DNA of 32,000 nt from Alkalilimnicola ehrlichii MLHE-1 (lineage in GTDB: Bacteria > Pseudomonadota > Gammaproteobacteria > Nitrococcales > Halorhodospiraceae), in contig NC_008340.1 in NCBI RefSeq assembly GCF_000014785.1, forward strand, positions 1,290,001 to 1,322,000. Reading direction: 5' to 3'. The notes under the pieces were generated by a model, which was given only the letters and a program-made list of their open reading frames with translations, was not told the origin of the DNA and did no database searches. The position numbers and the translations under genes were made by a program. Below are positions 24,395-28,806 of this stretch, piece after piece (position 1 is the stretch's first letter; each line of letters opens with the position of its first letter).

Positions 24395-24636
24395 TCACCT
24401 TTCGGACTGCAACTCCGACAACACCCCCCGGAAACTCTCCAGCCCGGCCTCCAGGTTCTCGATGATCTCTTCGGCAATGTCGTCCGTCCGGCTCGGGCAA
24501 GTTGTCCTCGCTCCAGGTGGCCTGGCGCTGGTGGCGCGCCCCCGGCTTGTAGCGCTCGATGAACTCGCGCAGGTGCTCGTCGCGCAGCATGTGACAGAAG
24601 TTCCAGATCCTAGAGACGAGGTTCCCCGGCGTTCAT
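24395..24636 (-). pseudogene. hsdM: type I R-M methyltransferase hsdM remnant (internal deletions plus frameshift)
   Basis: [21 protein letters not shown] (HsdM N-terminus) is joined directly to [24 protein letters not shown]|LPEPD, and after a frameshift to [25 protein letters not shown] (HsdM C-terminal tail). About 80 codons remain where roughly 500 would be expected. The ATG overlaps the stop of the upstream gene (ATGA). Confidence 0.7.
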
Positions 24637-25634
24637 TCGGCACTCGCTCTGTCGTCGTGGTTGTTGCTCACGTCTTCCGAAATGAGGTTCATGACCAAGC
24701 GCACCATCAGGTCCTTGGCCTTGGGGTCGCTCTCAGCGATCAACAGGGTCAGGGCGGTCAGGCCCTGTTCGTTGAGGGTGAGGCGCATGCCTTCCTGGCG
24801 CAGGTAAAGCAGAAACAGGAAAGCGCCAGAGCGCTTGTTGCCGTCCGAGAAGGGGTGGTTCTTGATGACGAAGTACAGCAGATGCGCGGCGCGTTCCTCA
24901 CGCGTCTTGTAGAGGAATTCGCCGAACATGCTCTGTTCCAGGTTGCCCAGAATCGAGGCCAGCCCGTCACCCCTATCCCGTGCGAACAGCTCCGTGGCCT
25001 CGCCCCGCTCGCGCAGTTCAGCCGCGAGGGCATCCAGGGCGCGGCGTGCCTCGTCCAGCGCCAGAACGCCCCGGGCCGGTCGGGCGCCGGGCGGCAGACC
25101 CAAGGCGCCTTCGTCGTAGTCCTGCAGCAGGCGCCAGGTGCGGGCATAGCCGAGGATCAGCCCCACCACCTCCTGGCCCAGGTCGGAAACCAGCTCCTGC
25201 CGGGTGAGCGTCTGGCCCAGCAACTCCACCGCCTGCTCCAGTTCGGACAGGCCCTGCTGGGCCAGTCGGTGTTCGTTGAGGCTGTAGCCCTGGGTCAGAT
25301 GCTCGCGCAGGACGCGGGTGGCCCATTGGCGGAAGCGGGTGGCACGCCCCGAGTTGACCCGATAGCCCACTGAGATCACGGCGTCCAGATCGTAGTGCTT
25401 GAGCCGCCGGCGTACCTGGCGGTTGCCCTCTTGGCGAACTACCGAGAATTCCTCGGTAGTTGCCGACTCGGCCAACTCGCCCTCTGAATAGATGTTCTTG
25501 AGGTGTAGCCCGATATTGTCCGTTGTCGTATCGAACAGCTCGGCCATCTGGCTCTGAGTCGCCCAGATTGACTCGCCTTCCAGTCGGACTTCGACCGGCT
25601 GGTTGGCATCTTCAAAGATTACGATTTCACTCAT
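24633..25634 (-). CDS. RhuM-like N-terminal domain fused to a Fic/Doc family domain
   Basis: The N-terminus [47 protein letters not shown] is RhuM-type. The C-terminal active-site motif [11 protein letters not shown] (aa 260-270) fits the Doc-type HxFx[DN][AG]NKR pattern. Confidence 0.85.
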
Positions 25635-25670
25635 ACAGCCTCCTTGCTGTCGTGGTATGGGTCGATGGAT

Positions 25671-25766
25671 TCATGCCGTCGTCCCGGCCTTGCGCTTGAA
25701 GACGTCCATCACCACCGCGGATTTACGCTTCGCGGTCCAGCGCTTGATGGTCGCTTCGTTGCTCAT
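25671..25766 (-). CDS. 31-codon ORF with a strong Shine-Dalgarno site; possibly the 5' stub of an IS orfA/HTH gene
   Basis: AGGAGG is followed by a 5-nt spacer and ATG. The product is MSNEATIKRWTAKRKSAVVMDVFKRKAGTTA*. The KRWTAKRK..VV segment resembles the start of small transposase-helper HTH proteins. It lies directly downstream of repeat copy A. Confidence 0.3.
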   Translation of the reverse strand: MSNEATIKRWTAKRKSAVVMDVFKRKAGTTA

Positions 25767-28204: not shown

Positions 28205-28572
28205 GAGGCAGAATCATCCTCGCGTTGATACCCAGTGTATTTGAGTGATGATCCCCACACCTTTTCGGCGGGATAGCGCTTTTCGTTGAGCGCCATCTTC
28301 TCCTCTACGGCTCTAGGAATATCTATACCCAGCTTATCTGCCAGCCTGAGCAGGTAAATCTGCACATCCGCGATTTCGTGCGCCGCTGCCTGATGCTGAT
28401 CCGGCGTGAGCTCGTGAGACTGCGCTTCTGTCATCCACTGAAATAGGTCTTGGAGCTCCCCCACCTCTCCTGACAGCGCCATCGTCAGGTTCTTGGGGGA
28501 GTGGAATTGGTCCCAGTTACGAGCCTCAGCAAAGGCGCGCGCTTTTTCGCGTAGCGTTTGGAAATCCGACAT
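28201..28572 (-). CDS. MazG-like all-alpha NTP pyrophosphohydrolase (DCTPP1-like)
   Basis: 123 aa. It has F.EARNWDQFHSPKNL..ALSGEVGELQDLFQW and HEIADVQIYLLRLADKLGIDI, which are EExxE/ExxD metal-binding motifs. The stop overlaps the start of the 793-aa gene (ATGA at 28201-28204). Confidence 0.85.
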   Translation of the reverse strand: MSDFQTLREKARAFAEARNWDQFHSPKNLTMALSGEVGELQDLFQWMTEAQSHELTPDQHQAAAHEIADVQIYLLRLADKLGIDIPRAVEEKMALNEKRYPAEKVWGSSLKYTGYQREDDSAS

Positions 28573-28596
28573 GGCAGCTTCCCATGGTTGATTTGG

Positions 28597-28806
28597 TTAA
28601 GGCAGTGGCTCACCCGTCAGGGTGAAGTAGAGCCGCTGGATGGTGCCGATGGGGACTTGACCGTCGGTGGGGTACTCGCGCACCGCCACGCCCCGGGTGG
28701 CCTGCGGGTTCAGTGCGGCCAGGCTTTGCACCGTCCAGCCGGAGGCGCGGAGCTGTTCATCGATGCGGTCGCGGGCGCGTTGTTCCGGGTTCTGGTTATT
28801 GGGCAT
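28597..28806 (-). pseudogene. hsdR: N-terminal stub of a type I restriction subunit hsdR
   Basis: PEQRARDRIDEQLRASGWTVQSLAALNPQATRGVAVREYPTDGQ matches the HsdR N-terminal domain pattern (..IDxQLxxAGWxVQ....GVAVREFP). Homology is lost after about 50 codons and a stop follows at codon 70. Confidence 0.6.

Follow-up and report, generated by a model that had tools for sequence, protein, structure and literature searches.

The window analysed here, a stretch of 32,000 nucleotides (nt) from Alkalilimnicola ehrlichii MLHE-1 (contig NC_008340.1, positions 1,290,001 to 1,322,000; all positions below are window coordinates unless another locus is named), carries between 24395 and 28806 a row of broken and intact genes, all on the minus strand. 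Read in the direction of these genes, the row consists of two pieces of an hsdR pseudogene (28663-28806, start codon to codon 48, and 28603-28671, codons ~256-281), a junction and leader of ~30 nt (28573-28602), a gene for a MazG-like protein (28201-28572) that overlaps by 4 nt a gene for a protein of 793 amino acids (aa) with DUF2075 and S24 domains (25823-28204), the left end of an IS3-family insertion sequence (IS; 25695-25818), the last 7-8 codons and stop of hsdS (25671-25694), an intact rhuM-fic gene (24633-25634), and an hsdM pseudogene with ~250 nt of broken coding sequence (24395-24640). We interpret the locus, with a probability of about 85%, as a decayed type I restriction-modification (R-M) operon of the order hsdR-hsdS-rider-hsdM, whose HsdR had an EcoEI-type C-terminal domain. 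The interpretation draws on homology, a match in gene order, the deletion junctions, a shift in base composition, and catalytic residues conserved in the two-gene MazG/DUF2075 unit, hereafter the cassette, that now occupies the interior of the operon.

Intact relatives of the operon provided the means of reading the remnant. Through a tblastn search of plasmid records, we identified a Gemmobacter aquarius plasmid matching both the hsdR and the hsdM stubs; the type I system of this plasmid is intact, with the gene order hsdR, hsdS, DUF262, hsdM, and its Hsd proteins were used as queries. A scan of species-representative genomes with the RhuM-Fic protein yielded 59 loci (labelled, like all relatives below, with L-numbers), none of them with a 100% match to the RhuM of the window. 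Eight of the 59, all from other gammaproteobacteria, contain an intact hsdR-hsdS-rhuM-hsdM operon (L010, L045, L012, L017, L026, L036, L057, and L061). The best of these, L010, encodes ResIII and EcoEI_R_C domains, two Methylase_S domains, and HsdM_N and N6_Mtase domains, and served as the reference for the junctions. Aligned to L010 by blastn, the window gives five ordered pieces at 78-83% nucleotide identity (E from 0 to 1.6e-9), namely the 5' end of hsdR, an internal part of hsdR, a 1.1-kb piece running from the last hsdS codons through rhuM into the first 19 codons of hsdM, and two pieces from the 3' part of hsdM; for the three pieces that involve hsdM the E values are 0 (continuing from rhuM), 3e-18, and 6e-21. 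Ordered and co-oriented similarity, together with disrupted reading frames, marks the locus as the remnant of a type I R-M operon.

An earlier note on this DNA, made from the sequence alone, had described hsdR as an N-terminal stub of ~50 codons. The stub is real: residues 4-50 of the G. aquarius HsdR align with 28803-28663 at 68% identity (tblastn, E 1.5e-14), and identity to the closest intact HsdR (L010, L045) reaches 79-83%. It is not, however, all that remains of the gene, since HsdR residues 261-281 match 28665-28603 in the same frame (tblastn, 71%, E 1e-3), and this second piece (PTDGQV..LTGEPL) matches positions 6374-6442 of L010 at 80% (blastn, E 1.6e-9). The two pieces are separated by a deletion of 630 nt between two 9-nt CCCACCGAC repeats at codons 46 and 256, each encoding Pro-Thr-Asp, and jointly they make up the annotated 69-aa "hypothetical protein" (28597-28806). 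The alignment with L010 hsdR ends at 28603 and is followed by the TAA stop of the stub and, within the leader, the ribosome-binding site of the MazG gene. Both the helicase/translocase core of HsdR (ResIII, DEAD) and its nuclease region are absent from the remnant. Pfam detects no Hsd domain in the 69-aa open reading frame (ORF), PDB sequence searches with the hsdR and hsdM stubs return noise only, and the one NCBIfam match, to PRK11448, is weak and concerns the hsdR stub (E 0.007); domain models fail on stubs this short or broken, and homology was therefore established through the intact relatives. A word-index protein search with the 69-aa ORF, which tests for conserved short ORFs and is not a sensitive homology search, gave 7 candidates with no full-length HsdR and no family of similar short proteins among them; the only full-length match was the A. 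ehrlichii MLHE-1 protein itself.

The hsdM pseudogene was recognised by tblastn, blastn, and PADLOC. Residues 6-20 and 398-430 of the G. aquarius HsdM match 24620-24576 and 24587-24480, respectively, in one frame, and residues 467-484 match 24484-24431 in a different frame (tblastn, E 3.6e-9), and the joined stub matches the PADLOC MTase_I model with an E value of 1.1e-7. The start codon and the first residues (MNA) are kept at 24640-24632, codons ~6-20 lie at 24620-24577, codons ~399-424 at 24588-24501, and codons ~460-490 at 24507-24402, where homology to intact hsdM stops (blastn versus L010). In total, ~80 codons are retained and, as judged by Pfam, no N6_Mtase domain is left. Compared with L010, the gene has lost 1143 nt between [C/A]GCGACGA repeats (codons 18 to 399) and 108 nt between GGA[G/C]AAC repeats (codons 424 to 460), the repeats being direct repeats of 7-8 nt, and has acquired two frameshifts, a +1 insertion after Met-Asn-Ala that leads to a TAG stop and a +4 duplication of GGAC near 24485. 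The earlier description of an ~80-codon stub, in which an N-terminal peptide is joined to C-terminal segments, thus holds, as do the two internal deletions; the single frameshift proposed with them has become two. With tblastn matches in both stretches and a PADLOC match to the joined hsdM stub, the similarity of 24395-24640 to HsdM and of 28590-28810 to HsdR can be regarded as genuine. Against L010 it was also possible to map all three large deletions, one in hsdR and two in hsdM, as had been proposed. Each is flanked by direct repeats of 7-9 nt that are present at both sites in the intact L010, and all three are in frame because the flanking repeats share the same codon phase.

Of hsdS, the earlier note had seen no recognisable remnant, and at the protein level this is correct: the best tblastn match has an E value of 0.15, and the two target-recognition domains are missing. 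At the nucleotide level, however, a short tail encoding RKAGTTA* at 25694-25671 aligns with the 3' end of L010 hsdS. The 1124-nt blastn alignment to L010 begins at 25694 (position 9946 of L010), and the hsdS piece, too short for significance by itself, is recognisable only because the long rhuM alignment runs through it; 25671-25694 thus probably corresponds to the last ~8 hsdS codons and the stop. The conserved hsdS-rhuM spacer and the ribosome-binding site of rhuM follow.

Directly upstream of the hsdS tail lies the IS3-family left end (25695-25818), identified by tblastn and by alignment to plasmid elements. Its terminal inverted repeat of 37 nt (25782-25818, TGACCCCCTCC...CTATAGTGCGGC), which begins with TGACCC and sits at the right-hand junction, is followed by 15 nt and then by the ATG of a DUF1153-type orfA, whose first 24 codons are kept (25766-25695). 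These codons resemble the N-termini of DUF1153 and transposase OrfA proteins (tblastn); the plasmid records with these matches have a gene for an IS3 family transposase behind that orfA, and the IS end and orfA start align with elements of Vibrio maritimus and Escherichia coli IncHI1 plasmids. Since the 24 codons are fused in frame to the hsdS tail, the resulting 31-aa ORF (25671-25766) is a chimera of a transposase start and an hsdS end. The sequence resembles IS3-family elements with a DUF1153-type OrfA in its TGACCC start, in the spacing to the orfA ATG, and in the first 24 codons. It differs from them in that only ~125 nt of the left end remain, with neither orfB nor the right end, accompanied by a second, solitary copy of the repeat 3.6 kb away (29400-29436, minus strand; repeat search and alignment), which is located 18 nt past the stop of a NERD-domain gene and 67 nt upstream of an OsmC-like gene. 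The two 37-nt copies are 86% identical and in the same orientation; two matches in the 32-kb window compare with 0.01 expected by chance. The copies bracket the OsmC-like gene, the hsdR remnant, and the cassette. A promoter or operator, or a genome-wide repeat, had been considered for the 37-nt sequence, and both were dropped in favour of an IS3 terminal repeat once complete IS3 elements had been aligned. Another association of this kind was observed on a V. maritimus plasmid (L145, NZ_CP090440.1, 2501-5078), where an IS3 element of the same OrfA type adjoins a fragment annotated as the C-terminal domain of a type I R subunit.

In the midst of these remnants, rhuM-fic is intact. Its product of 333 aa matches the Pfam families RhuM, in the N-terminal domain (2.7e-24, 86 bits), and Fic (2.3e-12, 48 bits), both above the cut-offs, and the PADLOC model PDC-S23 over residues 2-320 (1.8e-120). 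The motif HPFSDGNKR is visible in the Fic/Doc C-terminal domain of the translation and would be of the Doc type. The TGA stop of rhuM and the former hsdM start codon overlap in the sequence ATGA, an arrangement identical to that of the intact operons, so that both the integrity of the gene and the overlap, already noticed in the unaided sequence, are confirmed. The gene is 86-92% identical to its orthologues, 8 of which reside inside intact R-S-RhuM-M operons; operons of this family usually carry it as a rider, placed between hsdS and hsdM. Searches for proteins identical to the RhuM and DUF2075 proteins of the window returned only the same locus in two sequencing runs and no variant arrangement.

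The pair described earlier as MazG and NTPase genes does lie between the two stubs, in a space that it shares with the IS3 end, the hsdS tail, and rhuM. The two genes have a guanine-plus-cytosine (GC) content of 54% (gene 2, 54.2%), compared with 63-67% all around. The first encodes a predicted all-alpha MazG-like nucleoside triphosphate (NTP) pyrophosphohydrolase of the DCTPP1/RS21-C6 type, with a match to Pfam PF12643 (3e-12, 47 bits versus a cut-off of 27) and PDB sequence matches to the deoxycytidine triphosphate (dCTP) pyrophosphatases 2a3q and 6sqw (8e-26). The 793-aa product of the second matches PF09848 (DUF2075, Schlafen group 3 helicase domain; 2e-109) and, in its C-terminal part, PF00717 (S24; 2.3e-7, 30.9 bits versus a cut-off of 23.3). 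In an alignment of 51 homologues, D80, E98, and K100 of a PD-(D/E)xK-type motif, the Walker A and DE motifs, and Ser695 within GESM are invariant, and K740, A658, A659, and G660 are conserved in at least 90%. The protein therefore possesses the Ser/Lys pair (S695/K740) and the Ala-Gly site (AAG, A659-G660, within VAAGE) of an S24 autopeptidase, and Ala-Ala-Gly 658-660 looks like a LexA cleavage site. Together, the VAAGE motif, the GESM serine, and the conserved lysine, all within residues 655-745, suggest RecA-stimulated self-cleavage as a possible activation switch. In these three features the domain resembles the S24 domains of LexA and UmuD; it differs in being fused to a nuclease-helicase and not to a DNA-binding repressor domain. 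The AlphaFold model of the protein (predicted local distance difference test, pLDDT, 76.8) matches the superfamily 1B (SF1B) helicases RecD2, SLFN11, Dna2, and Dda in Foldseek, where the helicase core accounted for most of the whole-model result. Nhi (Staphylococcus epidermidis SERP2475) and the Nhi-like defence proteins combine a nuclease with a DUF2075 domain behind it (bioRxiv 10.1101/776245; 10.1101/2022.05.11.491447), and the cassette protein shares with them the N-terminal PD-(D/E)xK-type motif and the ensuing DUF2075 SF1B helicase core. It also has a C-terminal LexA-like S24 domain and a MazG/DCTPP1-like partner, neither of which is described for Nhi in these papers (bioRxiv 10.1101/776245; 10.1101/2022.05.11.491447).

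The cassette is a very widespread pair that appears to be undescribed. The 793-aa protein has at least 8000 homologues, those listed being ~795 aa long, and in ~66 of 80 related metagenome loci a MazG gene is located directly upstream of the DUF2075 gene. Similarity among the relatives begins 11-25 nt before the MazG ATG and ends at the stop of gene 2; these boundaries imply that the mobile unit comprises the two genes and a ribosome-binding site, with neither a promoter nor end repeats. An integron gene cassette was considered, as the unit is promoterless and tightly bounded, and rejected, since the sequence past the stop differs completely between close relatives and no 3' element is shared; no dedicated attC model was run. 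Genes with a Fic domain (RhuM-Fic, SoFic-like, and other) adjoin or lie near the cassette in the window and in L007, L037, L074, L076, L106, L147, L150, and L151. This proximity recurs in many otherwise different contexts and could reflect either co-location in defence islands or a functional link.

The age of the insertion can be gauged from L065, a soda-lake metagenome contig with the same order of OsmC 3' end, hsdR remnant, MazG, and DUF2075. It shares with the window the junction between hsdR piece 2 and the cassette leader, so that the insertion predates the split of the two lineages, which are ~11% diverged in nucleotide sequence; on this comparison the event is not a recent one. The in-situ replacement of one system by another, as previously proposed, accords well with the ordered match to intact operons, the 54% GC piece, and the conserved two-gene unit; calling it a snapshot overstates its recency, and a defence role of the incoming module is our inference. 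Between L065 and the window, the cassette genes are 89% identical and hsdR piece 2 with the leader is 73% identical. A further 40-nt deletion in L065 shifts the reading frame in the second half of the stub, which indicates that the stub ORF is not conserved; together with the search in which the 69-aa ORF matched only itself at full length, this argues that the short ORFs are not conserved genes, a possibility that would have spoken against the proposed decay.

Nor, to judge from related sequences, is the disruption a one-off, as cassettes flanked by hsdR and hsdM sequence are also found in L073/74, L100, and L101/102. L073/74 belongs to the window's own cassette clade (82-85% protein identity); there, hsdR codons 3-69 are followed by the cassette and a SoFic-like gene, hsdM is intact, and hsdS is missing. 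In L151 and L007, of the same clade, the cassette stands beside a rhuM-fic gene that is 88-92% identical, with no remnants of restriction genes. L101/102 (hsdR codons 217-480, cassette, hsdM from codon 220) and L100 (hsdR codons 5-130 with a frameshift, cassette, hsdM codons 369-480) belong to a second clade only 52% identical to the first. Since the second-clade remnants are ~46-56% identical to L010, versus ~79% for those of the window, they derive from a different host operon; the cassette must therefore have entered type I operons independently no fewer than twice, each time downstream of the hsdR 5' end and with the same orientation. In 40 representative cassette loci the other neighbours are mostly housekeeping genes rather than restriction genes. 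The stubs of the window show nucleotide identities of 75-85% to both L074 and the intact genes, values that do not tell stubs travelling with the cassette from plain insertion followed by erosion. Around the cassette and rhuM of the Aquisalimonas-like loci, a palindromic repeat, GTAGGGTGGACCTTCAGGTCCACCCTAC, occurs several times (L007, 7470-7560; L151, 2700-2730 and 3950-4050) and resembles a repetitive extragenic palindromic (REP)-type element.

Damaged copies of the restriction genes were also encountered among the relatives of the operon. In L039 (Halomonadaceae KBTZ08), hsdM carries a deletion and is interrupted by an in-frame stop codon; L046 (Halomonas faecis) has an hsdR scrap of 39 codons upstream of rhuM, and L052 (H. 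daqiaonensis) a C-terminal stub of hsdM. On plasmid pFW12EY of Methylomonas koyamae (L005, NZ_AP019778.1, 4102-33580), 26 kb of DNA with toxin-antitoxin and metal-efflux/resistance genes, a Tn3 transposase, and IS481 separate a truncated hsdR (777 aa) from hsdM. Judged from their sequences, these copies show that loss of this restriction family is common in halophilic gammaproteobacteria.

In the course of events that we favour, a horizontally acquired, promoterless-looking cassette would have replaced the 3' part of hsdR and nearly all of hsdS, with an IS3-family element presumably taking part at the right-hand junction. The decay series and the recurring pattern in relatives speak for disruption of hsdR and hsdS by the insertion first and erosion afterwards: with restriction and modification dead, the leftovers would have shrunk through deletions between short repeats and through small frameshifting insertions, and the rider rhuM-fic would have stayed intact throughout. 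From the OsmC-like gene to the hsdM remnant, all genes stand head to tail on the minus strand with gaps of 0-37 nt or overlaps, the 128-nt IS3/hsdS remnant being the sole exception; given this arrangement, the cassette probably owes its transcription to the signals that once served hsdR or to those of OsmC. The IS3 end repeats may add to this through a TATAGT that resembles a -10 box, and transcription probably ends at a hairpin shared with the convergent icd gene. As for its function, the cassette most likely acts as an Nhi-like anti-phage nuclease-helicase. The LexA-like domain would keep the nuclease-helicase inactive until RecA-stimulated self-cleavage at Ala659-Gly660, and the MazG partner would hydrolyse dCTP or a modified dCTP. 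The combination of a nuclease, a Schlafen-type helicase, and a LexA-like switch suggests a link between the sensing of DNA damage and anti-phage action.

Several observations weigh against parts of this account. A single genome is compatible with two orders of events: the insertion may have inactivated restriction, or the cassette may have entered an operon that no longer worked. A promoter and terminator scan found nothing usable on the minus strand. PADLOC holds no full-length model for the cassette: the 793-aa protein gives partial matches to PDC-S41 (2.8e-18), AbiO, and Nhi (1e-9), the last confined to the P-loop region (residues 256-414), and the MazG protein gives nothing. A literature search found no paper linking DUF2075 with MazG; a search for restriction systems in A. 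ehrlichii likewise found no paper. With partial PADLOC matches and no such paper, the putative role of the cassette as a defence system is deduced from its domains and neighbours. Finally, the first 100 nt of the hsdR stub (28707-28806; L065 69-167) are 96% identical between the window and L065, above the identity of the cassette itself and far above that of hsdR piece 2. Plain neutral decay fails to account for this conservation, which could reflect a regulatory constraint or a recombination boundary.

The conserved stub start also bears on the alternatives. One of them is recurrent capture: the MazG and DUF2075-S24 cassette, lacking a promoter, would time and again come to lie downstream of the hsdR 5' end in type I operons of this family, either by selection, hsdR being a dispensable and constitutively expressed slot, or by homologous recombination, in which the flanking hsdR and hsdM stubs would act as arms for exchanging the cassette into an intact resident operon. 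We consider this possible, if doubtful. It would explain why remnants flank the cassette in four lineages (the window with L065, L073/74, L100, and L101/102) split over two clades with 52% identity, each with a co-oriented 5' or internal hsdR fragment directly upstream and hsdM sequence downstream; the different host operons indicated by the lower identity of the second-clade remnants to L010, the identical cassette boundaries in every lineage, the unusual conservation of the 5' 100 nt of the stub, and the predominance of housekeeping genes among the other neighbours in the 40 representative loci point the same way. However, remnants are present in only ~4 of 49 sequence clusters, and one ancestral insertion per clade followed by uneven erosion would suffice, given that L100 and L102 retain non-overlapping pieces. 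Statistically, two separate events within defence islands carry little conviction, the L074 stubs resemble those of the window no more closely than intact genes do, and no intact operon with the cassette as its rider was found. A broader proposal, according to which the cassette would be an undescribed two-gene anti-phage system that is triggered by RecA-stimulated cleavage and spreads without a promoter by repeatedly taking over type I operons, with expression supplied by the hsdR 5' end in front of it and the stubs possibly acting as homology arms, strikes us as speculative and on balance unlikely. If such repeated takeover were true, the stubs would be a signature of cassette movement and not of mere decay.

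It seems improbable that the short ORFs are functional rather than neutral pseudogenes, with the hsdR 5' stub retained as a leader or as a small protein and the hsdM tail because it aids operon translation or stability. The 69-aa ORF is indeed open from the original start codon, ends 24 nt before the MazG gene, and is annotated as a protein by NCBI; its first 100 nt differ from those of L065 by three synonymous changes and one non-synonymous change, and all three large deletions are in frame. Yet repeats that stand in one codon phase and specify identical residues are expected to yield in-frame deletions; in L065 the latter half of the ORF has lost its frame and shows about the divergence expected at neutrality, and the hsdM remnant is interrupted by a pair of frameshifts and by a TAG stop near its start. 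The breakpoints of the stubs differ in other lineages (codon 69, codon ~130 with a frameshift, and codon ~480), and L007 and L151 have no remnants at all. As for a chance resemblance, in which the stubs would be spurious ORFs of high-GC DNA or an artefact of annotation, the failure of Pfam and of the PDB searches to recognise either stub is all that speaks for it, set against tblastn E values of 1.5e-14 and 3.6e-9 within the window, blastn matches of 1e-23 to 1.6e-9 to an intact operon that are ordered, co-oriented, and continuous with rhuM, and the MTase_I match in PADLOC. The matching order of five separate pieces refutes this explanation, to which we assign a negligible likelihood.

Read as a decayed type I operon, the locus can be compared with operons that carry embedded defence genes in the layout hsdR-hsdS-X-hsdM, such as the type I R-M system of Vibrio cholerae VPI-2 with tgvAB (PMC11411939) and EcoprrI with prrC (reviewed in PMC12707154). 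The ancestral operon had the same layout, with rhuM-fic as the rider between hsdS and hsdM, the slot occupied by DUF262 on the Gemmobacter plasmid. In the tgvAB- and prrC-type operons, restriction is intact beside the rider, whereas here hsdR, hsdS, and hsdM have all been destroyed; moreover, those operons carry their rider, and here a newcomer replaces operon sequence.

Degraded and orphaned R-M systems are well known, as is the turnover of defence islands, in which restriction genes are lost through deletion and IS activity. The present locus, where another, putatively immunity-type gene set has taken the same chromosomal spot, is a well-resolved new example of such decay and turnover, distinguished from the general case by a base-level reconstruction of the junctions, three repeat-mediated deletions, and a decay series in relatives. 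It constitutes an unusually readable record of one immune locus dying and another, putative one taking its slot, with every junction mapped to the base, earlier and later stages of decay supplied by the relatives, and the mechanism of deletion revealed by short direct repeats. In practical terms, the 69-aa "hypothetical protein" and the 31-aa ORF can be flagged as gene debris, and the apparent hsd genes of this genome should not be taken to make a working restriction system.

On the right, the hsdM remnant converges with icd (22090-24324, plus strand). Between the two lies a perfect GC-rich hairpin, read from the sequence at 24350-24378 (GGTGGGCCCCG-TGCAATG-CGGGGCCCACC), which probably terminates transcription from both sides and at which the island ends on the right. 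The other flank is formed by the OsmC-like gene (28796-29332, minus strand; Pfam OsmC, 2.9e-18), whose final 11 nt overlap the old hsdR start; an OsmC-like gene next to hsdR was found in none of the intact relatives. A tRNA scan of the window found none, so that there is no tRNA-linked island boundary. Farther upstream, the NERD-domain gene, which has a C-terminal topoisomerase-type zinc ribbon (29455-32000, minus strand), is interrupted by an IS1634-family element at ~29751-31672, with terminal inverted repeats of 26 nt and a transposase gene at 29824-31512. The split NERD gene is another disrupted defence-type gene of the same island.

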